Part shown: positions 15,135 through 64,000 of the stretch, piece by piece
Layout of the letters: each line of letters starts with the position of its first letter
How positions within the stretch are numbered: the stretch's first letter is position 1
DNA from: a bacterium
GTDB taxonomy: Bacteria; Patescibacteriota; Minisyncoccia; Phycocordibacterales; Phycocordibacteraceae
NCBI GenBank assembly: GCA_021778295.1
Contig: JAJYCP010000002.1
Coordinates: 3,027 to 67,026, forward strand
Direction: 5' to 3'
Length of the DNA: 64,000 nucleotides
Notes under the pieces: generated by a model
The model's database searches: none
Seen by the model: only the letters and a program-made list of their open reading frames with translations
What the model was told of the DNA's origin: nothing
Program-made: the position numbers and the translations under genes

Positions 15135-15546
15135 GTTGCGGGGGCCGGAATCGAACCGGCGTCTGGAGGTTCTTTTACACCTGCTGTTTCCAACTGGAAT
15201 GGACTATACCACAATCCCATAAGGACTCTCCCATTATAGTCTCTGAACCTTTCCAGTCTCACTTTCCAGAGTTGCTTTTGCTCGGACTATACGTCCTCGC
15301 TTCCGCACTCTGTTGTTCGCCTCCCCCATAAGAATGGGGGGAACCCCCGATAAATGAAACTAGACTTGGCTGCTGATTGCCGAATCTTCTTGTTTTTTAG
15401 GCGTTCGCGCTCATCCTTTCGGATCACGCTGTAGCACAAGAAGCTCTAACGGTATTCCAGCAATTTAGAGAGTTTTTCCACTATCCGTTACCGGATAGGG
15501 TCACGTTTTCACATGAGCCTCCCGAGGTACCTCTCCTCTACCCCGC
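15135..15546 (-). tRNA. initiator tRNA-fMet (anticodon CAT) interrupted by a group I intron; exons 15512..15546 and 15135..15170
   Basis: The joined exons give A-GCGGGG-TA-GAGG-AGAGGTA-CCTC-G-GGAGG-CTCAT|AA-CCTCC-AGAC-GCCGG-TTCGATT-CCGGC-CCCCGCA-A, a full cloverleaf. The 3' half CCGGCCCCCGCAA equals the E. coli tRNA-fMet 3' end. The 1:72 mismatch (A x A) and A11:U24 are initiator hallmarks. CCA is not encoded. Confidence 0.8.
15171..15511 (-). ncRNA. group I intron (IC3-like, no ORF) in the anticodon loop of tRNA-fMet
   Basis: The 5' exon ends in U (CAU|) and intron nt 9-11 GUG can pair with CAU including a G.U pair (P1). Other elements: P2 CUAUCCG-GUAA-CGGAUAG (GNRA loop); P3 CUCUCU/GGAGAG; J3/4 AAA; P4 UUGCUG/CAGCAG followed by AGCCAAG; GGAAUACCGUUAG (compare GGGAAACCUAAG of IC3 introns); CAGAGACUAUA...UAUAGUC (P7). 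The last intron nucleotide is G. Confidence 0.75.
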
Positions 15547-19996: not shown

Positions 19997-20521
19997 CTAG
20001 TAGTGGGCGCTGATGCCGCGGGACACGAAGCGCGTTCCTCCGGGACTTGCCACCGTAGCGCACGAAACATTGTAGCCTTGCGAGAAGAGATATGTCGTGC
20101 CGGCACCGAGCGCCGGCTTATAGACCGTCACATCCGCACAATGCGCTCCCGAATCGAGCGAGAGGCGCGTGGCGATGACCCACTGGCTTGAAGTATAGGA
20201 GAGCACGGTCGCAGAGACCGGCGCAGTGGTACCACAGGACATGAGGGGCGCTGTGGTGGTCGCGGTTGGAGGATAGGCGAAGAGATTCTGCTGCTGATCG
20301 GCATACAAGGCGCATTCAAGCGCGCTGTCGGCGGCATAAAACGCATACTGGGATTCGATGGCCGAAGAAGCGAGCACTTGTTGCTTGTACGCAAGAGAGC
20401 CGAGCGTGAGACCGATACTCAACATCACCGACATGAAAATGAGAGCCATGAGGAGCGCGAACCCTCGTCGAGACGCAGAGGGGCGCGTTTGCGCGATGTT
20501 ATTTTTGTTTTTCATTGCCAT
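19997..20521 (-). CDS. minor pilin-like protein (PilX-like hydrophobic N-terminus)
   Basis: MAMKNKNNIAQTRPSASRRGFALLMALIFMSVMLSIGLTLGSLAY... Last gene of the pseudopilin run. Start moved to ATG 20521. Confidence 0.6.
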   Translation of the reverse strand: MAMKNKNNIAQTRPSASRRGFALLMALIFMSVMLSIGLTLGSLAYKQQVLASSAIESQYAFYAADSALECALYADQQQNLFAYPPTATTTAPLMSCGTTAPVSATVLSYTSSQWVIATRLSLDSGAHCADVTVYKPALGAGTTYLFSQGYNVSCATVASPGGTRFVSRGISAHY

Positions 20522-21282
20522 GACGTAAGGTGGTCCATTACCGTAACCGTGTACGGGATACCGTGGAAACTCCACGTCACAGTCGAGACGATGCGCTCCT
20601 CGGTAGAAGAGACCGTGAACGCTTGTATCGTGCGCGTGAACGGCTGCAGTACCGCGCCATTGCCGCTCTGCTCGGTGTAGTAGTTCGTCGTGCCGTTGTT
20701 CGCGAGATAGAGTGGCGTACAAGCGCTGCCGGTACAAGGGCTGAGTGAGAAACCGCTTCCGGTGCCCATCGGAAGCGTCGGATCGAGCGTGCAGGTCATC
20801 GAACGGCATTGGGTAATGGCCGCGCTGTCCGTGCCGGTAAGAAAGTCGGTCCAGGCGGCGCTTGAGGTGTTTGTACCGCCCGCCTGATACGCGAGGAGAT
20901 ATTCATCATCGCGCATAGCGCGCACGTACTCGACGCCTTCTTGTGCGAGATAGGAAGCGGTGAGCTGGTAGCGTGCGCCTTCTGCGGCAACGATAGCGCG
21001 ATCCGCGCCGAACAAAGGCCCCGCAACCGCAAGCGCAAGGATGCTCACGGCAATCATGGCTTCGATAAGCGTGAAGCCGCGGAGCTGGATTTGCTCCCTG
21101 AAGCTTATTTCAAAACTCCCGCGAAGGGTATGCGGCAGAAAGGAGTACGCCGTCTTTTTCTGCTGAAAAAGCGGCTCGCTCTCGCCCCGTCGGGCTCCGA
21201 GAGCCTCTTTCTGCCGCATACCCTTCGCGTCGCCGGAAGGTTTGAGATGGGTTTCAGACTCGTAGAGTGTTTTCATACTCAT
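20512..21282 (-). CDS. type IV minor pilin-like protein with a repeat-element-encoded extended leader
   Basis: Mature part G|FTLIEAMIAVSILALAVAGPLF. ATG 21282 overlaps the stop of the upstream pilin gene (ATGA). Residues ~9-62 of the leader are encoded by the MITE-like repeat at 21098..21257. No ATG/GTG/TTG exists in frame between the repeat and the G|F cleavage motif. Confidence 0.65.
   Translation of the reverse strand: MSMKTLYESETHLKPSGDAKGMRQKEALGARRGESEPLFQQKKTAYSFLPHTLRGSFEISFREQIQLRGFTLIEAMIAVSILALAVAGPLFGADRAIVAAEGARYQLTASYLAQEGVEYVRAMRDDEYLLAYQAGGTNTSSAAWTDFLTGTDSAAITQCRSMTCTLDPTLPMGTGSGFSLSPCTGSACTPLYLANNGTTNYYTEQSGNGAVLQPFTRTIQAFTVSSTEERIVSTVTWSFHGIPYTVTVMDHLTSWQ
21098..21257 (-). 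repeat. MITE-like palindromic repeat, copy 1 (left terminus degenerate)
   Basis: ...ATTTCAAAACTCCCGCGAAGGGTATGCGGCAGAAAGG...CCTCTTTCTGCCGCATACCCTTCGCG...GTTTGAGATGGGTTTCAG aligns along its full length with 45639..45796, 41131..41274 (inverted) and 53310..53468 (inverted core). Confidence 0.85.
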
Positions 21283-21797
21283 ATGTCGGAGCCGCGCATC
21301 GTCGCGCCGGTCTCAATGGTAAACGGTTCTGTTTTCCCCGGGCCGGAAGAGACGGTGCCCGAAACGATGATGGTAACGCGCGCTTGTTGGTAATCGGTCG
21401 GCGCCGGATGCGTACCAAACGCATAGAACGTCAAGGACGAAATAGTCACCGAGGGGTCGGTAAGCGTGCTTGCCGTATTGCCCGTCATTTTTTGGACCGC
21501 GGATCCGACGAGACTGTAGGTGACCGGCGTTCCGTTATCGTCCACGAGAGAAAAACTGCTCGCGCCATTTGGACAATCGCCCAGGCCGCCGCAGTTATAG
21601 TTCGTTCCGGTACGGATGCTGCGCGTCATGCTCTCAAGGGCGAAAGAAAGGTTGTCGATACCGGTGGAAATTGCCTGCGCTTGCCGATTGGCGCCGATCA
21701 GAATGAGGTAGGCGCCCGAAGCCAGCAGCATAATAAGCGAAAAGAGTCCCATCGCGACAATGAGTTCGATAAGCGTGTAGCCTTTGGAGCGGATCAT
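21279..21797 (-). CDS. type IV minor pilin-like protein
   Basis: MIRSKG|YTLIELIVAMGLFSLIMLLASGAYL. ATGA overlap with the upstream gene (start 21797; ATG 21803 is an alternative). Confidence 0.8.
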   Translation of the reverse strand: MIRSKGYTLIELIVAMGLFSLIMLLASGAYLILIGANRQAQAISTGIDNLSFALESMTRSIRTGTNYNCGGLGDCPNGASSFSLVDDNGTPVTYSLVGSAVQKMTGNTASTLTDPSVTISSLTFYAFGTHPAPTDYQQARVTIIVSGTVSSGPGKTEPFTIETGATMRGSDI

Positions 21798-22459
21798 GGG
21801 CATGAGAGGGCGGTCGCGTTTATTTCTCCCGACGCGCCCACTGAAACGAAACGCGAACCGCCCTGCGGGGAGGAAAGAGTGAGGCATGCTTGCGTTACGG
21901 GAGATGACGCTGAATACGCGCCATTTACGCTCATGAACGGATCGGGGTTCGGACGCGAGAAAATAATATCGAGCGTCGAGAGCGCTTGGTTGCCGGAATT
22001 CGCGCACGACCACGACAGCGTGTTCGGCGTATAGGCGCAGAAATCACTCACTGTAATACCGTTCCCGAGCGTATAGCCGGTAACTTTCTCGCCCTGATTC
22101 GCCTCATATACGCAGTCGCCCGGGCGGGCGTTCGGAGAGGTCGGGTCGGCGATCGGGTGACAGCTTGTGGAGGAGGGCGGCGGGTAGGTGTCGGCAAAAA
22201 GCGTAAAGGAACCCGGCGTCGCTTTTTGGAAATCAAGGCCATATCCTGCGTTTGCTACGGTCCCGGCCACGCGATTGCCCAGGCCATACGTCTCGGCGCT
22301 GCGGAGCGTGAGCGCCACATCGTATGCGGTATTCGCAAGGATGAGCGTTTTATTGAAAGAGCTTTGGCTGGTCAGCACGACTGCGGTGATGATGATCATA
22401 ATCGCCAACACGACCAAAAGTTCGATTAGCGTAAAGCCACGATGATGAGAGGGTTCCAT
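21794..22459 (-). CDS. type IV minor pilin-like protein (GspH/FimT-like)
   Basis: MEPSHHRG|FTLIELLVVLAIMIIITAVVLTSQSSF. Confidence 0.8.
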   Translation of the reverse strand: MEPSHHRGFTLIELLVVLAIMIIITAVVLTSQSSFNKTLILANTAYDVALTLRSAETYGLGNRVAGTVANAGYGLDFQKATPGSFTLFADTYPPPSSTSCHPIADPTSPNARPGDCVYEANQGEKVTGYTLGNGITVSDFCAYTPNTLSWSCANSGNQALSTLDIIFSRPNPDPFMSVNGAYSASSPVTQACLTLSSPQGGSRFVSVGASGEINATALSCP

Positions 22460-23187
22460 TGAGTAAAGTACATGAGGAGGAAACCGGCGGCGAGGAAGGG
22501 TGCAAACGGTACCTCAACTCCCATTCTAGAACCTCGCGGTCTCCGTGCCAACACGACTATCCCTATAACCGCGCCGATCCAAAACGATGCAATGAACCCG
22601 GCGGGCGCGGCGGGGCCCGTAAGGAGCGCGAGACCGAACACAAATGGCGCGTCGGCGAGTCCCATCGCCCGTCCGCGCGAGAAGAAGTTGATGAGCGCCA
22701 AAAAGAGCGCGAAAGCGCCGGCGACCATAAGCGAGACGCCCAGCGCGCTCGTATCGTCCGCCAGGAAAAACCCCGCACAAGCGCTCGCAAGGACGAACGC
22801 TCCGAGGAGCGCGAACGGGAGTATCTGATGAGCAAGGTCGTAGAGGACGAGTGCGAGGAGCATCGAAAGCGAGAGGAGCATGAACGGCAGTGCGGCGGTA
22901 AAACCGATCTTGAGATATGCAAGCGCGAAAAGCCCTCCCAAGAGAAATTCCGCGAGGGGTCCGAGAAGTGAGAGGCGCGCGCTACAGCACCGCGCGCGGG
23001 CGCCAAGCGCGACGTACGAGATGATCGGGAAGAGTGACAATACCGAAAGCGGCGTGCCGCAGGCATCGCAACGGGAGCGTCCCGTGAGAAAACTCTGGCC
23101 GGTATGGAGACGCGCGACAAGCACGCCGAGGAAACTCGCTACGATAGCTCCGAGCACAAAAAATGAGATCGCAACAAGAAAAAGCAT
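22426..23187 (-). CDS. pilD: prepilin peptidase (A24 family)
   Basis: 253 aa, polytopic. N-terminal Cys pair region SRCDACGTPL...ISY, with conserved Asp-containing loops (LVLYDLAH, GLADAPF). Confidence 0.85.
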   Translation of the reverse strand: MLFLVAISFFVLGAIVASFLGVLVARLHTGQSFLTGRSRCDACGTPLSVLSLFPIISYVALGARARCCSARLSLLGPLAEFLLGGLFALAYLKIGFTAALPFMLLSLSMLLALVLYDLAHQILPFALLGAFVLASACAGFFLADDTSALGVSLMVAGAFALFLALINFFSRGRAMGLADAPFVFGLALLTGPAAPAGFIASFWIGAVIGIVVLARRPRGSRMGVEVPFAPFLAAGFLLMYFTQWNPLIIVALR

Positions 23188-23250: not shown

Positions 23251-23703
23251 TTATTGACAGGCCGTGAGAGTGCCGAGTGCGGCGGTTTCTTGCTTTGCGG
23301 TGCCGGTCGAGTCGACGCACCAGTACGTACCGCTTACTGCCGTCAACTGAGCCGATACCGCATAGGCAGACGGTGTGCTGTTACACACAACGTTTGCGGC
23401 TGCGCCCGAGGCATTCTGAGCACCCGTAACAGCCTTAACAATAGTCGCATCAGACCAGAGAGTGCCCGTCGTCGCGGCGCAGGAAGCCGATTGGGCTGCG
23501 CCATAGCTGTTGGCGCCTGCACCGCCGTAGTAGATCTCGGCCTGAGTCTGGATGGTCGAGAGGTCGGATTGGATAGCAGCGTCGTTGCCTTTCTGGCGGG
23601 CGGTGTTGAGCGAAGCGAGCACGACCGCTGAGAGGATGCCGATGATGGCGATCACGACGAGAAGTTCGATGAGGGTGAAACCTTGGGAACGATTTTTGTA
23701 CAT
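23251..23703 (-). CDS. pilA: type IV pilin (probable major pilin)
   Basis: MYKNRSQG|FTLIELLVVIAIIGILSAVVLASLNTARQKGNDAAIQSDL... 150 aa with a C-terminal Cys pair. Sits directly downstream of pilC and is followed by a hairpin. Confidence 0.85.
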   Translation of the reverse strand: MYKNRSQGFTLIELLVVIAIIGILSAVVLASLNTARQKGNDAAIQSDLSTIQTQAEIYYGGAGANSYGAAQSASCAATTGTLWSDATIVKAVTGAQNASGAAANVVCNSTPSAYAVSAQLTAVSGTYWCVDSTGTAKQETAALGTLTACQ

Positions 23704-39967: not shown

Positions 39968-41134
39968 ATGCTCGACGCGATGCGCCCTCGTGTTATTCTT
40001 GCTGTCGGGAATTTTTTCTTTTCGCTTTTCGCGACTCTTATCGTCTATATCCTGCTTCCCTACCTCTCCTCATTCATGCCGGAGGCGTATGCCGGACTTG
40101 TAATCGCTCTCGGCGCTCTCGGCGCGGTTCTATTTTTCCCCTATCTCCCGCGTTTGGTTGCGCGTTATGGCGCGCAACAGCTCGCGCTTGTATTTGCAAT
40201 CGCGGAAATGGTCGCACTCTTCGCGCTTGCGGCATCTCCCGGCGCTATCGCCGGCATCCTGCTTATCGCCGTCACCGTAGCACTCCAGCCTTTTCTGTAC
40301 TATGAACTTGATCTGCTCCTTGAAGCGACCATCGCGCAGGAGGGTACGACCGGCCGCGTGCGGGCGACTTTCCTCACCGCATGGAACATCGCGGCGCTTG
40401 CGGCGCCGCTTCTTATGGGTGCGCTTCTCGCGCATTCAAATGACTACAGCCGGGTATTCCTGGCCGCTTCAGCGGCGCTCGTACCGTTTATCGTCCTCTT
40501 TGCCGCCCGCTCCCTCCCTAAAGGTAAACCCCCAAAACTATCACGCATGCGCGACGCATTCTTTTGCGTGTTACATGACCGTGATCTCGCATCGGTTACG
40601 TTCGCTCATTTTCTCTTGTATCTCTTTTACGTTTGGACGCCGCTCTACGTTCCGGTGTATCTCCACGATGCGCTTGGCATACCCTGGTCAAGCCTTGGCA
40701 AAATGTTCTCGATAATGCTCATACCCTATGTGCTCGTCGAATATCCGGCGGGGTGGATCGCCGATCGGTTTCTCGGCGACAAAGAGCTCATGTTTGCAGG
40801 ATTTCTCATTGCGGGCGGCGCACTCGCTTCACTGGGCGTGCTCTCCACGGCTTCTCCGCTCATCCTGATTCTCGGTATCCTTATCGTTTCGCGCATCGGT
40901 GCGGCACTCGTTGAAAGCATGACCGAAATACATTTTTTCCGGCGCGTCTCCGAACAAGACGTGAATTCGGTGAATATATTCCGCGGTATCTGGCCCTTGG
41001 CGGATCTTGTCGCGCCGATCGTGGGAAGTTTTATTCTTTTTTTCGGTAATTATCAAATCCTCTTCGTACTCACCGGCGGGTTCATCGCCATCGTCGGTGT
41101 GGCAACGACACTCTTCATAAAAGATTTCCGCTAG
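39968..41134 (+). CDS. MFS transporter
   Basis: 388 aa with about 12 TM segments and a typical MFS hydrophobic periodicity. Its stop TAG lies inside the CTAG terminus of repeat copy 2. Confidence 0.8.
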   Translation: MLDAMRPRVILAVGNFFFSLFATLIVYILLPYLSSFMPEAYAGLVIALGALGAVLFFPYLPRLVARYGAQQLALVFAIAEMVALFALAASPGAIAGILLIAVTVALQPFLYYELDLLLEATIAQEGTTGRVRATFLTAWNIAALAAPLLMGALLAHSNDYSRVFLAASAALVPFIVLFAARSLPKGKPPKLSRMRDAFFCVLHDRDLASVTFAHFLLYLFYVWTPLYVPVYLHDALGIPWSSLGKMFSIMLIPYVLVEYPAGWIADRFLGDKELMFAGFLIAGGALASLGVLSTASPLILILGILIVSRIGAALVESMTEIHFFRRVSEQDVNSVNIFRGIWPLADLVAPIVGSFILFFGNYQILFVLTGGFIAIVGVATTLFIKDFR

Positions 41135-41274
41135 GGTGGTCCGTCTCAACTCCCGTTCGGGCATGCGGCAGAAAGAGGCTTACGGAGCCCGACGGGGCGA
41201 GTACGAGCCGCTTTTTGAGCACAAAAAGACGGCGTACTCCTTTCTGCCGCATGCCCGAGTGGGAGGGGTTCTAG
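41131..41274. repeat. MITE-like palindromic repeat, copy 2 (inverted relative to copies 1 and 3)
   Basis: CTAGGGTGGTCCGTCTCAAC...GCATGCGGCAGAAAGAGG...CCTTTCTGCCGCATGC...GGGGTTCTAG. Flanked by CTAG at both ends. Fills the gap between two convergent genes exactly. Confidence 0.85.
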
Positions 41275-42083
41275 TCCGCGAGCGCGTACCGGCTCCTCTG
41301 CGCGCGAATCAGCCCTTCCGCGCAAAGCGCATCGAGAGCACGCGCGACCTGCGCGCGCCGGAGCGGCCCGAGTAACCCTGTAAGACGTACGCCCGTCGCG
41401 CTTCCGCGAGCGAGTTCCCGGAGGATTGCTCCGCGCGCCTCGCGCAGAGACCCTGTAAACTTCGTCTGTTTTATATAGTGCCGGCTCCGCGCATTGTGCG
41501 AGATACCCGAACGTTTCAAGTAAGCGCCATAGTCCATGAGTGCGCTGTACCATTCCCTCGCTCTGCCGGTAGGCAACACCTCCGTAAGGATGCGTTCTAT
41601 CTCCGTATCGGAAACGTTTTCTCTTTTCGGGAAGAAATGATGCAGAATGGCCGTGCGGATGTTCGTTTCCACTACGATGACATCGTGGTTGTAGGCGAAC
41701 GCCGCAATAGCACGGGCGGTATAGGGCCCGATACCCGGCAATGTTTCGAGTTCGCGCGCGGTGCGCGGCACTGCGCGCACCGCGATTTCTTTTGCCGCTT
41801 TGTGCAGCATGCTCGCCCGGCGATTATAGCCGAGTCCTTGCCAGCTTTTGAGAACTTCAGAGAGTGGCGCTGCGGCAAGCACGTGTACCGTTGGAAACTT
41901 TTTGATGAATGCCGCATAGAATGGCAGCACACGTTCCACCTGCGTCTGCTGCAACATGATTTCAGAGACGAGTATCCGGTACGGATTATGCGTTGTGCGC
42001 CACGGCAGCGTATGCCGTCCCCGTGCGCGATAGTACCGCCACACCAGCGCTCTAAATTTCGTAAACGACATCTTTGCGTTCAA
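41271..42083 (-). CDS. HhH-GPD DNA glycosylase, MutY-like N-terminal domain without Fe-S Cys motif, wHTH-like C-terminus
   Basis: HTLPWR.T.NPYRILVSEIMLQQTQV.RV...F...FP, LGYNRRA and LPGIGPYTARAI. There is no C-x6-C-x2-C-x5-C motif anywhere and no NUDIX-like C-terminal domain. Confidence 0.7.
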   Translation of the reverse strand: MNAKMSFTKFRALVWRYYRARGRHTLPWRTTHNPYRILVSEIMLQQTQVERVLPFYAAFIKKFPTVHVLAAAPLSEVLKSWQGLGYNRRASMLHKAAKEIAVRAVPRTARELETLPGIGPYTARAIAAFAYNHDVIVVETNIRTAILHHFFPKRENVSDTEIERILTEVLPTGRAREWYSALMDYGAYLKRSGISHNARSRHYIKQTKFTGSLREARGAILRELARGSATGVRLTGLLGPLRRAQVARALDALCAEGLIRAQRSRYALAD

Positions 42084-42741
42084 CGACTATTTTCCAACCG
42101 CGCCTTTTTGCGTGCGCGTAGAGCGCGCCGTTCGGGTTGAATGCGATGGCCGTTTCAACCGACTCAAGAAGAGGAATGTCGCTCTCCGTGTCCCCGACGC
42201 CGATCGAACCCTCAAACGTCAGACCTTCTTTGCGCATCGCCCTCTGCAGTATCGCCGATTTGTTTTGGATGAGATCGCCGTCCTCGACGTCGCCCGTAAA
42301 GTTTCCGGAGGGGCCCGAAGTAAAGAAAAATCCATAGACCTTATCGAATCCCGCCTCATAGCCGAACCCGTCGGCGATAAATTTCGGCGAATGCGAGATG
42401 GCGAGGAGATAATAACCCTTTCCTTTCAGATCTTTGATAAGGTCGCGCGTGTAGCGATAGACACGGTTCTTTTTTTCCTCGATAATTTCTCCGGCGGCGT
42501 CTGCCACTGCCGCAAACGGAACTCCTTTTATCTGTTTTTGGAAGACTTCAACGACTTTATCGACATACGCTTGATAATCGCCTTCCCGGTCAAGCCAGCG
42601 TGCGCGTTCCCTCTCGTAGAGCGCGCGTGATTCCTCCGGGAATATTCCTTTTTCAATGAGACGCTCGACGAGTTCGAGAGTCAGAGATGAGCGGAATACC
42701 GTCCCGTCAATGTCGAAAGCGGCTACCGGACGTTTTTCCAT
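42052..42741 (-). CDS. HAD-superfamily hydrolase (subfamily IB, phosphoserine-phosphatase-like)
   Basis: AAFDIDGTVF (DxDGT), ...AISHSP..., and GVGDTESDIPLL. Confidence 0.8.
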   Translation of the reverse strand: MEKRPVAAFDIDGTVFRSSLTLELVERLIEKGIFPEESRALYERERARWLDREGDYQAYVDKVVEVFQKQIKGVPFAAVADAAGEIIEEKKNRVYRYTRDLIKDLKGKGYYLLAISHSPKFIADGFGYEAGFDKVYGFFFTSGPSGNFTGDVEDGDLIQNKSAILQRAMRKEGLTFEGSIGVGDTESDIPLLESVETAIAFNPNGALYAHAKRRGWKIVVERKDVVYEI

Positions 42742-42762
42742 GCCGCCATAGTACCTTACTTC

Positions 42763-43434
42763 TTATGTCGCCTTCGGCCACCGCCGGGCGGCTGGCGGCC
42801 AGAGCTTCGTCAAGGGGTGCGCCGCACACTCGTGCGGACGGGCGGGACATACGTACCGGCCATAGAGGACGAGACCGTTATTTACGTACTTCCAGTCTCT
42901 TTTCGGTATGAGCGCTTCGAGATCCTTCGATATGTTCGTCAGGTCATCGGCATCGGTAAGGTCGAAACGCTTCGCGAAACGCTTTACGTGCGTATCGGTG
43001 GGGATACCCTCCCAGATACCGTACAGCTCGCCGAGGACGACGTGCGCCGTCTTGTAACCGACGCCCGGCAATTCGGTAAGCTCTGCGGCGGTCTGCGGGA
43101 TGGTACCGTCATATTTTTTATTGATCATTTTCGCCGCTTCGATAATCGCCTTCGCTTTGGTACGGAAAAACGGAATGGATGAGATTTCTTGCGCAAAAAC
43201 GGCGGGTTTTGCACGTGCGAAATCAAGCGGGGTTTTATATTTTTTGAAAAGCGTCCCGGTCAACTTGTTAACCGCTTTATCGGTGCACTGGGCGGAGAGG
43301 ATGACCGCGGCGACACACTGAAACGGCGTCCGGTATACGAGCTCGCTTGCGGGCTCCGGATACGCTTTTTTCAGATACGCAACGATTTCCCGGGCGCGCT
43401 CCTTCCGCCCCGCGCGCGAGGAATATCCGTTCAT
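42763..43434 (-). CDS. nth: endonuclease III family glycosylase/lyase with a degenerate Fe-S motif
   Basis: ILSAQCTD..VN, HhH LPGVGYKTAHVV and DTHV. The C-terminus reads C-PARPHE-C-AA-H-PLTKL-W where Nth has C-x6-C-x2-C-x5-C. Confidence 0.8.
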   Translation of the reverse strand: MNGYSSRAGRKERAREIVAYLKKAYPEPASELVYRTPFQCVAAVILSAQCTDKAVNKLTGTLFKKYKTPLDFARAKPAVFAQEISSIPFFRTKAKAIIEAAKMINKKYDGTIPQTAAELTELPGVGYKTAHVVLGELYGIWEGIPTDTHVKRFAKRFDLTDADDLTNISKDLEALIPKRDWKYVNNGLVLYGRYVCPARPHECAAHPLTKLWPPAARRWPKAT

Positions 43435-43904
43435 GCGCCGAGCGCCTTGAGGTCGGCAATGACTTCGGCGGCATGCGTCTCGGGTTTCACCTTCTCATAC
43501 ACTTTGGCGATAGTGAGCGACGGGTCGATAAGGAATGAGGTGCGGTTTGTGCCCATATAGGTTTTCCCCATAAATTTCTTTTCCCCGAACACACCGTACC
43601 TGCCGACCACCTCCTTGTGCACATCGGAAAGAAGCGTGAAAGGGAGCGCATACGCGTCGGCGAACTTTTTGTGGCTCGCAACGCTGTCGGTCGAAACGCC
43701 GAGCACTATTGCCCCGATATCTTTAAAATCTTTGAACTGGTCACGGATGGCGCACGCTTCGATAGTGCAGCCCGGGGTGTCGTCCTTCGGATAGAAATAC
43801 AAGAGTACCCACTTCCCCGCGTATCCGCCGAGCGTGTGTTCCTTTCCTTCTTGGTCGCTGAGCGTAAAGCGCGGCGCTGGTGAGCCGATTTCGGGCATTT
43901 TCAT
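43431..43904 (-). CDS. bcp: thiol peroxidase (Bcp-type peroxiredoxin)
   Basis: WVLLYFYPKDDTPGCTIEAC, GVS.DS..SHKKF and LPFTLLSD. Confidence 0.9.
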   Translation of the reverse strand: MKMPEIGSPAPRFTLSDQEGKEHTLGGYAGKWVLLYFYPKDDTPGCTIEACAIRDQFKDFKDIGAIVLGVSTDSVASHKKFADAYALPFTLLSDVHKEVVGRYGVFGEKKFMGKTYMGTNRTSFLIDPSLTIAKVYEKVKPETHAAEVIADLKALGA

Positions 43905-43912
43905 CGCTCGTA

Positions 43913-45079
43913 TTATAGCATTTCAGGCGTATGTTCTTCGCGCGGGAACGCAAAATTAAAGAAAAGCAGCAGGAGCGTCCCGGCAGAGAAAAGAGTGAAG
44001 AAGAGCACAATGAGGGGGCCGACAAATGGTACGAGCACGATGAGCGAGAGCACGAGCATGCCGAGAACCCCGTCTCGCCAAAGCACGGTGACGCGTCCGG
44101 AGAAACGCCGCACCAGCACGCTGCCGAAAAGAATGCCCGCATACATGAGCGCGAGGAGCGCCATGAGGGCGTAGGCGAAAAGGAGCAAGAAAGCGAGACC
44201 GATGCCGACAAACGTAAGCGCGAGCATAAGGAAGAGGACCGGCGTGACGACAAACGCCGCAAAACCAAGCAGCATCGTCAGGAGAATGCTGCGCGGGCGC
44301 TCTCGATAGGCGCGTTCAGTAACCGCTTCTGCAAGCTTCGGGAAAAGTCCGGCCAAAAGACCCGCAAGAATGAGCGCGCCGAGAATGCGCACCAGCAGGA
44401 ACACACCCATGCTCACGAATGCGAGCGCGCGCGAAGCGCCGGAGTCCGGTATGTACGATGCATTTTTGTAGGTGACGCCGCCGAGTATCGTCGCAGACGC
44501 CGGAATCGTTGCGACGTCTGGCGCTTCGTAGGAGAGCTTACCGCGGATGATGGTGCCCGGTGCGAGCGTGAGATGGCCGCTTGTCGCGACGGTAACGTTG
44601 CCCGCGAAGTCGCCGGCGAGCGAAACGGTATTTCCATAAACGGTGACCGGGCCTGAAGCGCCGTTCAATAGGGCGGCGTTCGCAGCGACAACGAAGACAC
44701 TTCCCCCGGCATGGCCCGTGTCGTATACGGAGAAGCCGAAGGCAATAAGATCGCCGGCGACGGGTTTTTCAATGTTTACGCTTCCGCCGGCCGCGCGAAA
44801 ATCTCCGGAAATTTGCGCGCGCGAGCTTATTGAACCGGCAATGAGCAGCTCGTCGCCGGCGACCGGCGCTGCAGTAATAATCGAACCGCCAAAGGCTGAA
44901 AAATCTCCGGCGACCGGCGCGGTAAGTACGACCGAAACGCCGGTCGCATACACATTCCCCGGTGAAGAGCTTGCAACAAGCAGCGAATGCGCTCCGACAA
45001 AGGACGCGGGCGCACTTGCGGCAAGAGCGCCCGCAGGAAGGAGAAGAAAAGCGAGCAGGGGAATAAAAATGCGTTGCAT
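43913..45079 (-). CDS. hypothetical protein: signal peptide, bactofilin-like beta-helical repeats, C-terminal multi-TM domain
   Basis: Start moved to MQRIFIPLLAFLLLPAGALAASA. Repeats of the form V.G(D/N)..A.GGS(V/I) follow (VAGDFSAFGGSI, ISGDFRAAGGSV, VAGDLIAFGFSV, LAGDFAGNVTV). The last ~170 aa carry five or six TM segments. Confidence 0.55.
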   Translation of the reverse strand: MQRIFIPLLAFLLLPAGALAASAPASFVGAHSLLVASSSPGNVYATGVSVVLTAPVAGDFSAFGGSIITAAPVAGDELLIAGSISSRAQISGDFRAAGGSVNIEKPVAGDLIAFGFSVYDTGHAGGSVFVVAANAALLNGASGPVTVYGNTVSLAGDFAGNVTVATSGHLTLAPGTIIRGKLSYEAPDVATIPASATILGGVTYKNASYIPDSGASRALAFVSMGVFLLVRILGALILAGLLAGLFPKLAEAVTERAYRERPRSILLTMLLGFAAFVVTPVLFLMLALTFVGIGLAFLLLFAYALMALLALMYAGILFGSVLVRRFSGRVTVLWRDGVLGMLVLSLIVLVPFVGPLIVLFFTLFSAGTLLLLFFNFAFPREEHTPEML

Positions 45080-45086
45080 ACAAGTT

Positions 45087-45563
45087 TCAGGATGCGGGTG
45101 GCATCGAGAAATGCCGTGATGGCGGCGGCATGTGTTTTGTGGTCCCGCGTACCGGCTCAATAATGCTCGCAAAAACCATCATAAGGAGCGCGATGCCGGC
45201 CGAGGCAAGACAGTAGACGCAGAGTGCGCCAATGATGAACACTTGGACGAGCGTGAAGTAGAGCGATGCAATGACGCCGATGAACGCCATTCCCTGCAAA
45301 AAGCGGCGCAGGAGCCGGTCAAAAATAACAAGCTCGAGCGCGGCAAGAACAAAAATAATCCCGTAAAAAACAATGCCGTATACGGCGAGCGGGATACCAA
45401 AAAGATGCGAATACGGGCTTGTCGCAACTATGTTGCACCCTGAAAGATTGCTGATATTGCAGAGGAGCGGCGTTCCGCTCACCTCGTGTTGGGCGATATA
45501 GGAAGAATCCGCAAGACCGGCGAACGCGAGAAAAAGGATGCATACGACCCCGGCGCGTTTCAT
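45087..45563 (-). CDS. vitamin K epoxide reductase (VKOR) family protein
   Basis: 158 aa with four TMs. Loop Cys pair C...C (LLCNISNLSGC), SPYS.LFGIP and the active-site CVYC. Confidence 0.8.
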   Translation of the reverse strand: MKRAGVVCILFLAFAGLADSSYIAQHEVSGTPLLCNISNLSGCNIVATSPYSHLFGIPLAVYGIVFYGIIFVLAALELVIFDRLLRRFLQGMAFIGVIASLYFTLVQVFIIGALCVYCLASAGIALLMMVFASIIEPVRGTTKHMPPPSRHFSMPPAS

Positions 45564-45638
45564 ACCCCGTTACAATACGCGCCATCGTATCGGTGCACAA
45601 GGGCGCCGTGGGGAACGGAAAAACTGAGATCCGTTTTG

Positions 45639-45796
45639 CTAGAACCCCATTTCAAAACGCCGCTCGGGTATGCCGCAGGAAAGGTACGCCGTCTTTTTCT
45701 GCTGAAAAAGCGTCTCGCTCTCGCCTCGTCAGGCTCCGAGAGCCCTTTCCTGCGGCATACCCCTCGCGTCGCCTAGAGTTTTGAGATGGGGTCTAG
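45639..45796. repeat. MITE-like palindromic repeat, copy 3 (best-preserved; CTAG at both ends)
   Basis: CTAGAACCCCATTTCAAAAC-GCCGCTCGGGTATGCCGCAGGAAAGG-...-CCCTTTCCTGCGGCATACCCCTCGCG-...GTTTTGAGATGGGGTCTAG. Nested inverted repeats, intergenic. Confidence 0.9.
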
Positions 45797-45816
45797 ATGC
45801 CGTTTCGTATTACATC

Positions 45817-46233
45817 TTACATCTGGGGCTGTGGGCCTGAAGAGTGCACCGGCGGCATGACGTTTCGCATATCATCCTTGCCGTATTTCCCGGCGGCAAA
45901 TATAAGCACACCAACGATGAGATTGAGCCAGTTCGAAGCCCAATTCGTACCGGCAATGCCCAAGAGCGTCCCGCCGATAGCAGGGACAGTGAAGACCCCT
46001 ATGAGACCAAGGAGAAACGTGATTACGCCGATGAGTTTGAGCCATAGTACGGAACTCTCGCTGGCCCAAAAGGCGACCGCAAGCAAGATCGCGCCGAGAA
46101 TGATGTGGATGAGATTGTGCGCGCCGTCTGCTACGAATAGCGCATTGGCGCCAATGAGCGGATTTGAAATAAACCCGAGAAGCCCGAGGAGTACCAAGAT
46201 GGCACCGAATATGAGGGAGAGCGTTTTCGCCAT
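45817..46233 (-). CDS. DUF4383-like small membrane protein
   Basis: MAKTLSLIFGAILVLLGLLGFISNP....ADGAHNLIHIILGAILL with four TMs. ATG 46242 is an alternative start. Confidence 0.65.
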   Translation of the reverse strand: MAKTLSLIFGAILVLLGLLGFISNPLIGANALFVADGAHNLIHIILGAILLAVAFWASESSVLWLKLIGVITFLLGLIGVFTVPAIGGTLLGIAGTNWASNWLNLIVGVLIFAAGKYGKDDMRNVMPPVHSSGPQPQM

Positions 46234-46443
46234 ACAAGCCATTAGGCTGCTAAAGCGGCTCCGAAAGGCGGAGCGCTACGATAAAGCATACCCCTTTCAG
46301 GCAGGGAGAGGGCCGCACATGCCGCTGCCTGTGCATAATGATGATGCCATGTGACGACACGCGCGCGTCACAGGCGCGCGTGTAGCACCATTCGCGTTAT
46401 CTTCGGGAACCATAGAGCCGCTCACTAGGGGCGTCTGCAAAAG

Positions 46444-47328
46444 CTAGAAACTGGTCTCGTCAATGCTGCGAAGCTGCCGGTAAGGGCGAATGCCTTTGCA
46501 TATTTCACTGCGCGGCGTCGTGACGCTTCGTTCACTGGTGGACGCGAACAGCGGCGGGCGCGGCGGGGACGGCGTATGGAAGAAATTACCGAAAAAACCG
46601 TATCGAATCTCCCAAGGGAATACAAAACAAGCGTGGAAAGTTGAACTGGTCGCCGCGACGGGTACGCCGACGATACGGACAATGCCGCCGCGCAGAACGG
46701 CTGCAAAATCAGTATTGCGCAAGTCGCCGGCTTCGACTTGCCACAAATGTCCCTTAAAGTCACGGAGTGCGAAAGAAGTGTTATCCGGCGCAAGCGAGAT
46801 CACGCGCCCGCCTAAGAGGCCTTTTTCCGGTGCAAGCCACCAGGAGCGCTCTTCAACAAGGATGGGACGGTAAAAGGGCGGGTGGTCGCCAATCGCTTCC
46901 TCGATCTCGCCGCCAAGACCGCTCGCGTAAAGGGCGCTGCCCAGTACGAGAGAAGCGAGTACTGCACCGAGCGCGATGACGGCGAGTGAATAGCGATATC
47001 CATGTGCCGTCCGGCGTACATTTACATAACCGACGAGTATGAAGAGTATGAGGGCGCCCGCCCAGAGGAAGGGCGCTGCCTCAAGGAAAAAGGCGAGAAA
47101 GTTCGCGTGCGTGGCGGCTGAGAGACGCCAGTCAACGTTCTGGATATCGAAGAGCATCGCGGAAAATGCGAGCGCACTTAAAGCGACCGCGAACGCGCCG
47201 AATATCCAGAAAAAATAATTCTTGAATATGAATTCCCAGCGCGGGCGCGGAACAAGATGTTCGCCGCTAATACGTTCAAGTACCTTTTGGGCAAGCTGAT
47301 CGTCTTTATGGTCGTCGTGCATCATCAT
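46444..47328 (-). CDS. putative anti-sigma factor / membrane protein co-transcribed with the ECF sigma
   Basis: 294 aa. ATGA overlap with the sigma gene. A short cytoplasmic N-terminus, four or five TMs, then an extracytoplasmic C-terminal domain. Assigned by position only. Confidence 0.5.
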   Translation of the reverse strand: MMMHDDHKDDQLAQKVLERISGEHLVPRPRWEFIFKNYFFWIFGAFAVALSALAFSAMLFDIQNVDWRLSAATHANFLAFFLEAAPFLWAGALILFILVGYVNVRRTAHGYRYSLAVIALGAVLASLVLGSALYASGLGGEIEEAIGDHPPFYRPILVEERSWWLAPEKGLLGGRVISLAPDNTSFALRDFKGHLWQVEAGDLRNTDFAAVLRGGIVRIVGVPVAATSSTFHACFVFPWEIRYGFFGNFFHTPSPPRPPLFASTSERSVTTPRSEICKGIRPYRQLRSIDETSF

Positions 47329-47966: not shown

Positions 47967-48593
47967 ATGCCCCTTTCTCTCTTTCTTTCCCACCTTATCG
48001 GCGGCGCGATCGGCAGTTCGGTAACCTTGTCGCTCGTCATCATCCTCGGCACATTTATACTCGAGGATCCGACTACCGTCATCGTTGGCGTGCTCGCGGC
48101 CGACGGCACCATCGGAGTGCCTCTCGCGCTTCTTTCTCTCTATGCCGGCATCATACTCGGCGACATCGGTCTCTACTGTCTCGGATGGCTCGCAAGCACG
48201 CATCCCCGGCTCGGACGATATGTCGATCATGAGTTCGTCGCGCCATTTCGTACCTGGCTTGAAAGTCGGTATGTGCTCACTGTCTTTACGGCTCGGTTCA
48301 TTCCGGGCTCGCGACTTCCAACCTATACCGCAAGCGGTTTTTTCCGTTCGCCGCTCTCAACGTTCGTGCTCACGGCAATCGTCGCGACGTCGATGTGGAC
48401 AACTATACTTTTTTCAACTTCTTACTGGTTCGGGAATTTCACTTCAACGTGGATCGGTTCCGTGCGGTGGGGCGTCGCGCTCCTTTTCCTCCTGCTGCTC
48501 TTCTTTACCGGCCGTCATAACCTTCTCGCACGGCGCGCAAAAAAGAACGGATTGAATACGGGCGCGGACGCACGGGAGCACCGAGTACTATGA
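47967..48593 (+). CDS. DedA/VTT-domain family membrane protein
   Basis: ILEDPTTVIVGVLAADG and ARFIPGSRLPTYTASG are DedA signature regions. Start moved to ATG 47967. Confidence 0.75.
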   Translation: MPLSLFLSHLIGGAIGSSVTLSLVIILGTFILEDPTTVIVGVLAADGTIGVPLALLSLYAGIILGDIGLYCLGWLASTHPRLGRYVDHEFVAPFRTWLESRYVLTVFTARFIPGSRLPTYTASGFFRSPLSTFVLTAIVATSMWTTILFSTSYWFGNFTSTWIGSVRWGVALLFLLLLFFTGRHNLLARRAKKNGLNTGADAREHRVL

Positions 48594-53309: not shown

Positions 53310-53468
53310 CTAAAACCATTTCAAAACCCCCGCTTCCCCGCGAGGGGTATGCGACAGAAAGAGGCTCTCGGAGCCCGACGGGGCGAGAGCGAGCCGCTTT
53401 TTCAGCAGAAAAAGACGGCGTACTCCTTTCTGTCGCATACCCGAGCGGGGGTTTGGAATTGGGTTCTA
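53310..53468. repeat. MITE-like palindromic repeat, copy 4
   Basis: CTAAAACCATTTCAAAAC...GGGGTATGCGACAGAAAGAGG...CCTTTCTGTCGCATACCC...GGAATTGGGTTCTAA. Its right terminus contains the ndk stop codon (CTA at 53466..53468). Confidence 0.85.
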
Positions 53469-54050
53469 ATCGCCGTGCCGTTTGTAGCGGTGGAGAGTGC
53501 TCTTCCCGAACCAGTGTTCGATTTCGTGCGCCGCCTCCTCGGGCGTCTCGGATGCATGAACGATGTTTGCGACCGCGCGTTTTTCGGCATTCGCGATGGC
53601 GGGAGAATCGTTAGAAAAATCTCCACGAATGGTACCCATATCGGCCTGATACGGCATCGTCGGACCGCAGATCTTGCGCACCATATCGACCGCATGCGTG
53701 CCCTCGACCACCATCTTCACCAGAGGAGCGGAGAGCATGTAATCGACGAGCCATTTCCGTATTTCGGGACCGATCTCTTCCGGCGCGGTCGTACCGAAAT
53801 CTTCCATCGCATCAAACTGATACTTTTCATAGGTAGCGAGCGTCTTCTCGCCGAGACGCTTCACCCATGCGGCATCCTTCGGGTAATGCGTATCGATCTG
53901 ATCAAACGTCGGCTGAAACATCTCGAGAGCGACGATCTTGAGATCGCGCTGCTCGAAACGCTTGATAATCTCGCCGACAAGGCCCTTCTTTACTCCGTCA
54001 GGCTTTATCATCACGTAGGTGCGCTCTTCTTTCGGATTCTTATGTGCCAT
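53466..54050 (-). CDS. ndk: nucleoside-diphosphate kinase (long form with an internal insertion)
   Basis: ERTYVMIKPDGV..GLVGEII.RFE...LKIVA and IRGDF......N.VHASE. 194 aa, against about 140-150 aa for typical Ndk. Confidence 0.85.
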   Translation of the reverse strand: MAHKNPKEERTYVMIKPDGVKKGLVGEIIKRFEQRDLKIVALEMFQPTFDQIDTHYPKDAAWVKRLGEKTLATYEKYQFDAMEDFGTTAPEEIGPEIRKWLVDYMLSAPLVKMVVEGTHAVDMVRKICGPTMPYQADMGTIRGDFSNDSPAIANAEKRAVANIVHASETPEEAAHEIEHWFGKSTLHRYKRHGD

Positions 54051-60312: not shown

Positions 60313-60690
60313 TTAGACGACTTCGGGCGCCAAAGAGACGATAGAGTGCCAGCCGCGCTCGGAAAGTTCGCGTGGAACGGGACCAAAGATTCGATTCCCT
60401 TTCGGGGCCATCTCCTTGCCCTGCTTCTCGACGATGACGACCGCATTCTCATCGAAACGTATGTACGAACCGTCTTTCCTTGCAAAGGGTTTCGTCTGCC
60501 GCACGACGACCGCGCGACAGATGTCCTTTTTTTTCACCGCCTTGCGCGGCTCGGCGGTCTGGATGGCAATGACGACCGTATCGCCGATGCGCGCATAGCG
60601 GCGTTTGGAACCGCCAAGCACCTTGAACACCCGTGCGATCTTTCCGCCTGAATTATCTGCGACCATGACGATGGATTGAGGCTGTAACAT
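60313..60690 (-). CDS. rplN: 50S ribosomal protein L14
   Basis: MLQPQSIVMVADNSGGK...R.A.IGD.VV. Start moved to ATG 60690. Confidence 0.95.
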   Translation of the reverse strand: MLQPQSIVMVADNSGGKIARVFKVLGGSKRRYARIGDTVVIAIQTAEPRKAVKKKDICRAVVVRQTKPFARKDGSYIRFDENAVVIVEKQGKEMAPKGNRIFGPVPRELSERGWHSIVSLAPEVV

Positions 60691-63106: not shown

Positions 63107-63847
63107 ATGCGGAAAAATATTTTCGGTATTGCGGTCATCGGTATTGTCCTTGCCGGAATCGTCGTCTACGCCGCTATTCGGCCGATGCCCGTAAAGGCGC
63201 CGACGCCAGGGACAGGCACGCAATCGCGCATCCTTTTACCTGCGGGGGTATATACGGAGCAGTCGCCGGGCTATGCTATCGCCGCAAATTACCCCACCAC
63301 CACCCCCCTGGCGAGCGCCGCAAACGAAAAAGCCATTGCGCAGATACAGAGCTACATCGGCGATACGATTTCCCAGTTCAAAACCAAAGGGAACGTCGCA
63401 TACCCGCCTGGTGGCGCGAAACAAACGCTGCAAATCAAATATCTCGTTTCGTCTTCGCCTCGCACGGTGTCATACATCTTTACCGTCTATGAAAATACGC
63501 TCGGTGTGCACGGTAACCTGTTCTTTCATACGTTCACCTTTGATACGTCAACGGGCGCGGAACTCACGCTCGCCGATCTTTTCGCGCCGAATGCGGCATA
63601 TCTGGACACTCTTTCCGCAATCAGCCGCGCGCAGCTTCCAGGCGTCATAGGGAAAAATGCCGACATAGGCTTCATTACGCGCGGTACCACCCCTGAAGTG
63701 AAGAATTTCGAAAATTTCTTCATTGATAATGGTTATCTTGATATCCTTTTCGACCCGTACCAAGTCGCCCCGTATGCTCTTGGCCCTCAGACACTCCGCA
63801 TCCCCCTCGCTACGCTCGGGGCTATCCTGAATCCGCAATACCGTTAG
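63107..63847 (+). CDS. membrane-anchored DUF3298/DUF4163-like protein
   Basis: N-terminal TM IFGIAVIGIVLAGIVVYAA. The C-terminal part ...FFIDNGYLDILFDPYQVAPYALGPQTLRIPL is typical of DUF3298 ends. Its stop TAG lies inside a repeat-terminus-like TTAGAACCCC. Confidence 0.6.
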   Translation: MRKNIFGIAVIGIVLAGIVVYAAIRPMPVKAPTPGTGTQSRILLPAGVYTEQSPGYAIAANYPTTTPLASAANEKAIAQIQSYIGDTISQFKTKGNVAYPPGGAKQTLQIKYLVSSSPRTVSYIFTVYENTLGVHGNLFFHTFTFDTSTGAELTLADLFAPNAAYLDTLSAISRAQLPGVIGKNADIGFITRGTTPEVKNFENFFIDNGYLDILFDPYQVAPYALGPQTLRIPLATLGAILNPQYR

Positions 63848-63867
63848 AACCCCCTCAAACCCCCGCC
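63844..63867. repeat. solo terminus-like fragment of the MITE-like repeat
   Basis: TTAGAACCCCCTCAAACCCCCGCC resembles the terminus TTAGAACCCAATTCCAAACCCCCGC (reverse complement of the copy 4 end) and then diverges. Confidence 0.5.
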
Positions 63868-63930
63868 TCCCTCTACCAAGATAGCGTCTTCAAGATGTTA
63901 TCTTGGGAGATCGAGGAATCCGGCATATCG

Positions 63931-64000
63931 TTAGAACCCATTTCAAAACTCCAGGCGACGCGAGGGGTATGCCGCAGGAAAGGGCTCTCGGAGCCTGACG
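63931..64000. repeat. MITE-like palindromic repeat, copy 5 (truncated by the window end)
   Basis: TTAGAACCCATTTCAAAACTCCAGGCGACGCGAGGGGTATGCCGCAGGAAAGGGCTCTCGGAGCCTGACG matches the reverse complement of the right half of copy 3. Confidence 0.8.

Follow-up and report, generated by a model that had tools for sequence, protein, structure and literature searches.

How does a long palindrome come to be repeated among the genes of a compact bacterial chromosome, and as what does it persist there? This question is raised by a non-coding segment (copy c3) of a Patescibacteria contig, which the original prediction took for one copy of a MITE-like family, with a structured-RNA or terminator family as the alternative. 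The window, by which we mean the whole stretch of 64,000 nucleotides that was analysed, is a core chromosomal stretch that carries genes for an ABC transporter, the ligase LigA, an amidase, GroEL, RNase J and IF3, for the type IV pilus machinery (PilB/T/C/M and prepilin peptidase), and the SecY-Adk-Map genes with the ribosomal-protein/SecY cluster.

Re-reading of the sequence and a repeat finder recovered all five predicted copies, in both orientations. The family occupies ~1.2% of the window. Four of its copies there are full length, a fifth is truncated by the window end, and a relic with an internal deletion is also present (Table 1). The orientation of the copies is unambiguous because the core is asymmetric, and nhmmer scored 130-170 bits in one sense and 20-40 bits in the other. 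A more sensitive HMM built from 34 copies found no further copies in the window; a weak match at 17402-17468 (E 0.024), within the amidase gene, was taken as chance. The copies had been called near-identical, which proved too strong a description: pairwise identity in the core is 82-97% among the window copies, and the outer arms are far more diverged. The CTAG/TTAG termini ascribed to the family are absent from c1, which ends in TGAA.../...TTCA, and one end of c2 is degenerate.

Table 1. Copies of the repeat in the window, parts of copy c3, and neighbouring features
Feature	Position	Strand	Remark
Pilin-like gene	20512-21282	-	N_methyl motif at aa 68-88; frame runs through c1
Copy c1	21098-21257	+	inside the pilin-like ORF, in the part coding for the leader peptide; termini without TAG
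Second pilin-like gene	21279-21857		pilin-like gene 20512-21282 lies directly downstream of it
Prepilin peptidase gene	22426-23187		upstream in the same neighbourhood
Copy c2	41131-41274	-	between convergent MFS gene (+) and HhH-GPD glycosylase gene (-)
Stop codons in the terminal CTAGs of c2	41132-41134, 41271-41273		one for each of the two flanking genes; c2 fills the gap
Copy c3	45639-45796	+	full length; flanked by divergent VKOR gene (start 45563, -) and unannotated + ORF
c3 outer arm, left (C-TA-GAACCCCATTTCAAAAC)	45639-45658	+	inverted-repeat match
c3 short spacer	45659-45665	+	anatomy
c3 inner arm, left (GGGTATGCCGCAGGAAAGG)	45666-45684	+	inverted-repeat match
c3 core hairpin 1 (GCCGTCTTTTTC-TGCT-GAAAAAGCG)	45688-45712	+	most conserved part of the family, and also the search pattern
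c3 core hairpin 2 (GCTCTCG...CGAGAGC, 4-bp apical stem)	45717-45743	+	covarying pairs across the family
c3 inner arm, right (complement)	45744-45762	+	inverted-repeat match
c3 longer spacer (asymmetric bulge)	45763-45777	+	anatomy
c3 outer arm, right (complement), then TA	45778-45796	+	inverted-repeat match
Empty site 1 (CTA-TGA)	48588-48593		abutting stop codons of FMN reductase gene (-) and VTT-domain gene (+)
Copy c4	53310-53469	-	right terminus supplies the ndk stop codon (53466-53468; nucleoside diphosphate kinase, -)
beta-CASP RNase gene		-	c4 sits 220 bp upstream of it
Relic (~82 bp)	63844-63925		internal deletion; counterpart full length in L009 (DBS1-3.bin101) and L029 (VFSW)
Relic, left terminus	63844-63871		includes the DUF3298 gene's stop codon (TAG, 63845-63847)
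Relic, right end	63879-63925		from the ancestral copy, full length at the same stop codon in L009/L029
Copy c5	63931->64000	-	cut by window end; same subfamily as c3

Each element is a non-coding unit of 145-160 bp built as a nested palindrome, in which outer, terminal inverted repeats of 17-20 bp enclose an inner inverted repeat of 19 bp and this in turn encloses an asymmetric core of two hairpins. With a non-coding length under 300 bp and terminal inverted repeats the elements agree with bacterial MITEs. The outer and inner inverted repeats originally quoted occur in c3 without a mismatch, and chance does not account for them, as shuffled sequences give an expectation of 0.00-0.01 matches. 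The proposed folding into one long branched hairpin was likewise borne out. As RNA, c3 was predicted to reach -89 kcal/mol (z -9.8) on the + strand and -89.5 kcal/mol (z -9.2) on the - strand, c4 -88 kcal/mol (z -9.1) and c2 -77 kcal/mol (z -7.6); as DNA, c3 was predicted to reach -53 kcal/mol (z -10.4).

The family extends well beyond the window. An exact scan combined with nhmmer yielded 45 distinct copies from the window, six species-representative MAGs and the metagenome VFSW01, at least 40 of them outside the window in related Patescibacteria/Paceibacterota genomes and this one metagenome. When one genome per species was scanned for an exact hairpin 1, 26 loci were found in six Patescibacteria/Paceibacterota MAGs. 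DBS1-3.bin101 (JAKBHL01) has at least 21 copies and REEB12 (JAGWIS01) at least seven; WY4.bin53 (JAKAKH01), SMAG_U14349, clean656 and an SRR29175778 bin have one each. All these counts are lower bounds, as loci were seeded only by copies with an exact 23-25-mer. The metagenome collection gave nine loci, all of the single project VFSW01. No viral contig matched the core pattern; by this search the family is not phage-borne. The window is ~90% identical to, and collinear with, both JAKBHL010000011.1 (DBS1-3.bin101) and WY4.bin53, and it is ~83% identical to a VFSW contig; this collinearity made site-by-site comparison possible. The comparison revealed that the presence or absence of copies differs between related genomes, with some copies specific to DBS1-3.bin101. 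The elements are thus dispersed and multicopy with variable site occupancy, again as in MITEs. Further evidence of copying comes from three different loci (L031, L032 and L035) whose elements share one private 58-nt insertion, located in the hairpin 2 loop.

We found no description of such repeats in the literature on Patescibacteria/CPR as far as it could be searched. Rfam gave no match on the elements when the whole window was searched at gathering thresholds, and none at E<=10 for the c3 region (45600-45840), so a match to a described ncRNA family, which would have spoken against the original prediction, did not appear. The family is a previously undescribed one of a known type, namely a bacterial MITE of ERIC/Correia-like form.

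Two pairs of empty and filled sites define what is inserted. At the first site, the window reads GAGTAC-TA-TGACG (48582-48593) where the TA belongs to a TAG stop codon and no intergenic base separates the two convergent genes, and DBS1-3.bin101 (L014:1265-1417) reads GAGTAC-CA-[GATC...GGGTTC]-TA-GGACG, where the element ends are GATCATTTC...GATGGGTTC. At the second, a VFSW contig (L030) is empty, CATTC-TA-ACCATT, and its filled counterpart (L021:2688-2836) reads CATTC-TA-[TAACTC...GGGTTC]-TA-ACCATT, with the ends TAACTCATTTC...GATGGGTTC. The second pair is a perfect TA duplication, and TA duplication at these two independent sites is characteristic of MITEs and of IS630-type insertion. The inserted unit is the whole 145-160 bp including the outer repeats, and the element proper runs from GAAC to GTTC. 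We had also considered that the outer palindrome might be a host target for a smaller inner unit, which was rejected since both clean empty sites are without outer repeats. A 4-bp YTAR duplication of the IS5-like kind fits empty site 1 worse than a TA duplication does. A further DBS copy (L014:3561-3700) is without counterpart at window positions 46337-46444, where the sequences are not cleanly comparable. Together with the terminal inverted repeats and the variable presence of copies, the two pairs bear out the idea of a MITE-like mobile unit. The CTAG preference originally suggested stems in part from the element: the flanks are YTAR-like, the two empty sites read CTAT and CTAA, and the G of CTAG is contributed by the element as its terminal base.

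The insertion sites coincide to a large extent with stop codons. A TA(G/A)(A/G) terminus was present at 38 of 59 evaluable ends, in all but one of the 38 preceded by C or T. About half of the termini (~27 ends) serve as stop codon for an ORF that enters the element and has 90 codons or more, and many copies lie between convergent genes; within the window, both ends of c2, one end of c4 (ndk) and the relic (DUF3298 gene) are such cases. The first base of the element is G and its last is C, so that on either strand a TA followed by the terminal G rebuilds TAG. A gene whose TAA or TAG stop is hit in the TA thus stays intact. CTAG itself is 7.6-fold depleted in the window (32 occurrences versus 243 expected), with GATC, GTAC and CATG near expectation, and 166 YTAR sites occur in the 64 kb, many CTAG/YTAR sites being at gene ends. 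Permissive YTAR sites are therefore few and concentrated at gene ends. From this pattern we infer that selection, perhaps along with a preference for YTAR, would filter insertions to stop codons.

Among the copies examined, c1 is the only one that is convincingly intragenic. In three genomes, the pilin frame runs from an ATG overlapping the upstream stop codon (ATGA) through the element to ...RGFTLIE. In the window this gives a leader of 68 aa with c1 in frame; in DBS1-3.bin101 the frame is open though the element is inverted, and in WY4.bin53 it is open in a different internal frame. Both end TAGs have been lost in all three genomes, which have the derived termini TGAA.../...TTTCAG in common. 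The chance of an open frame through an element is ~1/3, and the occurrence of three different open in-frame states is suggestive of selection, though no proof of it. Most of the homologues listed, with lengths of 185-220 aa, match over ~3/4 of the query. Among those that were read, several have a short leader, for example MNSKLQF directly before GFTLIE, and the REEB12 orthologue, with MTRTLHMSTK before GFTLIE, is without the element. In public data the pilin-like gene is called at 181-256 aa, the window's protein occurs in identical form (P0001, 67-kb contig), and WY4-type sequences (P0003) also have a GTG start inside the outer arm.

To describe pairing across the family, RNAalifold was applied to 34 aligned copies. 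The consensus comprises 31 pairs over the inner stem, hairpin 1 and hairpin 2; 96.5% of the stem cells are paired, and 15 of the 31 pairs have changed on both sides. None of 500 shuffles reached these values, and sliding the partner positions lowered pairing to 37-53%. The inner stem can diverge with the core retained, as in L025 (GAAGGACGGCGGC.../...GCCGCCGTCCTTC) and L012 (GCATGCTGCGAGAAAG/CTTTCTCGCAGCATGC). In the distant genomes generally (L005, L012, L024 and L025), a core and a stem of other sequence are present and there are no recognisable outer repeats. Conservation drops from the centre outward. Identity within genomes is 0.91-0.99 for the asymmetric core, where hairpin 1 served as the search pattern so that its own conservation cannot be judged. 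For hairpin 2 it is 0.91 within and 0.80 between genomes, for the inner stem 0.87-0.91 and 0.68-0.71, and for the outer arms and spacers ~0.5 in both comparisons. As for the strand, two fixed G.U positions favour one, and 16 A.C versus 5 G.U cells together with one common A.C position favour the other; picking an RNA strand from this asymmetry was abandoned as the signals are contradictory. The compensatory changes that the original prediction proposed to look for are thus present, but they do not separate selection on RNA from selection on DNA, because both strands form the same helices.

Orientation turned out to be unstable. At five of seven shared sites it differs between genomes with collinear flanks (c1 versus L007, c2 versus L013, c3 versus L014:4306-4445, L015 versus L031, and L019 versus L033); it is the same for c1 versus L017, L009 versus L029 and L011 versus L034. 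L012 of REEB12 was not used as a counterpart of c2 in position, since it is surrounded by different genes. The asymmetric spacers flip along with the core, which places the inversion breakpoints in the outer arms. After insertion the element behaves as a palindrome. The cores of L007 and L017, both at the pilin site, are 96% identical and yet inverted relative to each other, and the best reading of the flip at this site is that an ancestral copy was inverted in situ. Copies within a genome are 0.89-0.93 identical, as against 0.74-0.87 between genomes, even at shared sites. Since copies resemble the other copies of their own genome more than their counterparts at the same site, copy-to-copy conversion or replacement is needed. 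Sites also turn over directly. What had been taken for a solo terminus at 63844-63867 is indeed a terminus, but it is the left end of the ~82-bp relic and not a solo one, and c5 is a second insertion a few bases beyond that relic.

We regard as the best explanation, with a probability of about 0.6, that the repeats are non-autonomous, MITE-like transposons of Paceibacteria-type CPR bacteria that duplicate TA on insertion and later evolve as a DNA palindrome. The whole unit would be inserted by a TA-specific DDE transposase supplied in trans, most likely of the IS630/Tc1-mariner type. In a compact, CTAG-poor genome, surviving insertions would mainly be those in the TA of stop codons, where TAG is rebuilt and the gene is unharmed, and c1 may be tolerated as an in-frame part of a prepilin leader peptide that is cleaved off. 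Recombination between the arms, or template switching, could then invert the interior, and gene conversion or replacement between copies in either orientation could account for the homogeneity within genomes. Conversion between arms would produce changes that look compensatory. An effect of the 3'-end hairpin on transcripts, if any, would be a by-product exerted in both orientations. As originally stated, the window holds no recognisable transposase: none was found among the 45 window ORFs scanned against Pfam, seven of which had no match. In the window plus 35 loci (370 kb) there was no parent element with matching ends (GAACCCATTTCAAAAC) or a transposase, and no solo outer repeat at up to 3 mismatches.

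Some of the data sit uneasily with transposition by a DDE enzyme. The outer repeats, where such a transposase would be expected to bind, are the least conserved part of the element even within a genome (~0.5), and the distant genomes keep the core and a changed stem without outer repeats, which is not what the neutral decay of a simple MITE predicts. This retention hints at selection on the core or at another mode of spread. A host-retained, ERIC/REP-like element acting at the RNA level, where a 3' hairpin stabilises or terminates transcripts both ways and a mobile origin is secondary, would explain it. It would also fit with most copies beginning exactly at a stop codon, many of them between convergent genes, with the extent of pairing and compensatory change that no shuffle equalled, and with sites occupied across genomes that are just 80% identical. 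We nevertheless consider this unlikely. Relative to the flanking genes the elements point both ways, with flips at orthologous sites, two gene starts flank c3 and a coding region contains c1, the G.U and A.C mismatches favour neither strand, and arm-to-arm conversion in a DNA palindrome yields equal covariation without selection on RNA. Rfam gave no match, and a scan of 40900-46100 for intrinsic terminators found no hairpin with U-tract in c2 or c3, the total number of sites being at the level of shuffled sequence. The mixed orientation, the flips at five of seven shared sites and the contradictory wobbles are not those of a strand-specific structured ncRNA, and the structured-RNA or terminator family named as the alternative in the original prediction is not supported as a strand-specific RNA. 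Mobilisation in folded single-stranded form, by an enzyme that recognises hairpins (REPIN/RAYT-like, another HUH enzyme or a novel one) and reads those of the core, would agree with a core more conserved than the ends, with pairing kept as the stem sequence varies, and with units of core and stem in the distant genomes. It is nonetheless very improbable given that in each of the two clean insertions the outer repeats are part of the insert and TA is duplicated, that the element is no doublet of one REP unit and its two core hairpins differ, and that no Y1/HUH gene was found among the window ORFs scanned; REPIN/RAYT and IS200/IS605-type elements are not known to make a duplication and insert beside a fixed tetranucleotide. 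It is conceivable, if quite improbable, that the conserved and covarying core of two hairpins, within a stem free to vary in sequence, is the actual functional unit, a DNA or RNA module that a putative dedicated CPR enzyme recognises, copies, replaces and inverts at fixed sites next to stop codons. If true, this would be a new mode of maintaining a palindromic element, beyond cut-and-paste and passive recombination. As to the class of transposase, IS5/IS427-type elements can also yield TA/YTAR flanks.

The differences in orientation have two further possible sources. Repeated insertion into a few YTAR stop-codon sites could mimic some inversions, and it is possible, though rather unlikely, that the differences arose when subfamilies specific to each genome inserted independently at the same small set of permissive TA sites. 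The scarcity of such sites (32 CTAG and 166 YTAR in 64 kb, many at gene ends), the mere 75% identity of c3 to its positional counterpart L014:4306-4445, which belongs to a different subfamily, and the relic that adjoins a fresh copy at 63844-64000 all point this way. The pilin site does not, as its TAG-less termini are common to three genomes although the DBS1-3.bin101 copy is inverted, and as the L007 and L017 cores are nearly identical in spite of their opposite orientation; moreover, 4 of ~7 sites in the syntenic stretch are shared versus ~1 expected by a rough estimate. Recurrent insertion into scarce sites probably explains some, but not all, of the differences. That the inversions are instead artefacts of assembling palindromes from low-coverage metagenomes is hardly credible, even with DBS1-3.bin101 contigs whose names give a coverage of ~3x. 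The perfect arms do not exceed 20-26 nt, which is shorter than the usual final assembly k-mers, and the inverted segment includes the asymmetric spacers. Inversions were seen between several independent assemblies, and each of the two pilin-leader versions was assembled independently on 7-8 contigs.

CPR/Patescibacteria genomes are very small and generally held to be poor in mobile DNA. A MITE-like palindrome of the kind proposed here would illustrate how a selfish element can persist in a compact genome: it lands on stop codons and rebuilds them, it can be absorbed into a cleaved leader peptide, and as a long palindrome it keeps pairing, flips and stays homogeneous within the genome. Four features are notable: ends that rebuild stop codons, a copy living in frame within a prepilin leader, inversions that are frequent, and copies that evolve in concert in a genome of very small size. 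The original prediction had not included the overlap with stop codons, the in-frame copy in the pilin leader, the orientation flips or the relic. In practice, the repeats can be expected to cause mis-called ORFs and start codons, they may break or confuse metagenome assemblies, and they are useful as strain or lineage markers in the Paceibacteria-type group.

Among known palindromic repeats, REP/REPIN-RAYT systems resemble the family in being abundant extragenic palindromes at gene ends that evolve in concert within a genome. A REPIN (in part after PMC2817692) consists of a single short REP, present as an inverted doublet and carrying a conserved head tetranucleotide; REPINs are associated with a RAYT gene and are not known to duplicate their target. 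The present core, in contrast, is asymmetric, with two different hairpins, insertion duplicates TA, and the window ORFs scanned include no RAYT; the family does not belong to this group. Closest in form and function are ERIC/YPAL, RUP and Correia elements and, for c1, the Rickettsia palindromic elements (RPE), although by sequence the family is a member of none of them. The 127-bp, MITE-like ERIC/YPAL elements of enterobacteria are also imperfect palindromes over their whole length with a conserved centre, and they too are intergenic within operons and occur in both orientations. They insert at TA and are co-transcribed with neighbouring genes (in part after PMC2229807). Unlike them, the present family has about half of its ends on stop codons and an interior that flips at orthologous sites, has no claimable orientation-dependent effect on RNA, and lives in another phylum without any relation in sequence.

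With RUP of Streptococcus pneumoniae, other IS630-derived MITEs and IS630 itself (target CTAG), the family shares the TA duplication and YTAR-like flanks, and with RUP and the IS630-derived MITEs the small non-coding unit with terminal inverted repeats (PMC2229807 for RUP). The parent of RUP is known and has matching ends (IS630-Spn1), whereas that of the present family was not found in 370 kb; moreover, its ends are its least conserved part, and its nested palindrome encloses a structured core. Correia elements of Neisseria are ~100-160 bp long, with terminal inverted repeats and a TA target, as in the present family. They form hairpins in transcripts, and some variants are fused to ORFs (PMC2229807). 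Correia elements differ in having an IHF site and promoter elements and in not being palindromic over their full length, and there is no sequence similarity. RPE, finally, are palindromic repeats tolerated in frame inside protein genes. Most copies of the present family are intergenic, and the one convincing intragenic copy sits in a stretch that cleavage is expected to remove from the protein; in frame within its prepilin leader, c1 is nevertheless like an RPE.

In one related locus (L009, DBS1-3.bin101), the right arm of the main MITE-like element is the host site of a second, different MITE-like element of ~150 bp, which is bounded by 28-bp terminal inverted repeats (CTTTGAATTAGGAAACTCCATTTGCGAC / GTCGCAAATGGAGTTTCCTAATTCAAAG) and has GAGATA on each flank. 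A mini-hairpin of ~25-30 nt, which reads TCTCCTAAGATGACATCTTAGGAGA or, in a variant form, CCAAGAT..ATCTTGG, was found to be repeated within the right arm of several main elements, as well as at places where partial main elements join, and may represent a third, very small palindromic insert. Insertions also occur in the hairpin 2 loop: one of 58 nt (CACCACAGGAGTACTTCCAAGTTTCTAATTCGCTTCGCTCATAAGAAACTTTGGTCGCAT) is identical in three copies of the main element that lie at separate loci of a single metagenome (VFSW01), and at L023 a different, AT-rich hairpin is inserted at a similar place. Finally, a core-like sequence at L027 contains both hairpins, with hairpin 1 altered to TTGTATTTTTCTGCTGAAAAATCAG, and no recognizable inner or outer stem was observed around it. 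This may be a decayed copy of the main element, or the core in another context.

Locations of the inserts and other features (window coordinates unless a locus is named)
Feature	Location	Strand
Second MITE-like element	L009:1640-1790	
Mini-hairpin or variant	63879-63910; L013:855-882; L016:2380-2406; L020:7867-7892; L009:1600-1622	
58-nt insertion	L031:11286-11345; L032:4321-4380; L035:974-1033	
Core-like sequence	L027:3964-4023	
Pilin-like gene	20512-21282	-
Prepilin motif	13180-13292; 22373-22441; 23579-23691; 60562-60603	
26-nt inverted repeat	897-951	
Adjoining tRNA gene	950-1022	
Cluster of four tRNA genes	246-1903	-
Group I intron	15172-15512	-

Over the whole window, CTAG was observed 32 times against 243 expected (7.6-fold too rare), and many of the remaining CTAGs are positioned at gene ends. 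TTAG, CTAA and TTAA were 2.5- to 6-fold too rare, and the counts of GATC, GTAC and CATG were close to expectation.

In seven homologues of the pilin-like protein from other Paceibacteria (P0007, P0009, P0020, P0036, P0048, P0059 and P0067), the leader is longer, with between one and three copies of a module resembling GFTTKR..SQKRNSDFSFANERREQ. This part of the leader may therefore have taken up other repeat sequences as well, or the gene starts may be mis-called there. A coding motif for the prepilin N-terminus (RGFTLIELLVVIAI) is common to several genes in the window, and the repeat finder listed its sites as 70-78% inverted repeats. These were rejected as members of the main-element family, being the starts of paralogous pilin-like genes.

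Within the cluster of four tRNA genes, a near-perfect inverted repeat (26 nt, 96% complementary, 3-nt loop) directly adjoins one of the genes. Elsewhere in the window, an apparent tRNA gene with the anticodon CAU is split by a group I intron, which matches Rfam RF00028 at 58.6 bits. The sequence ...GGGAGGCTCAT closes the 5' exon, the T-arm GGTTCGA is present in the 3' exon, and ARAGORN made no tRNA call for this split gene. Precisely the 341 intron bases are absent from the orthologue in WY4.bin53 (L017), which is therefore an intron-less allele.
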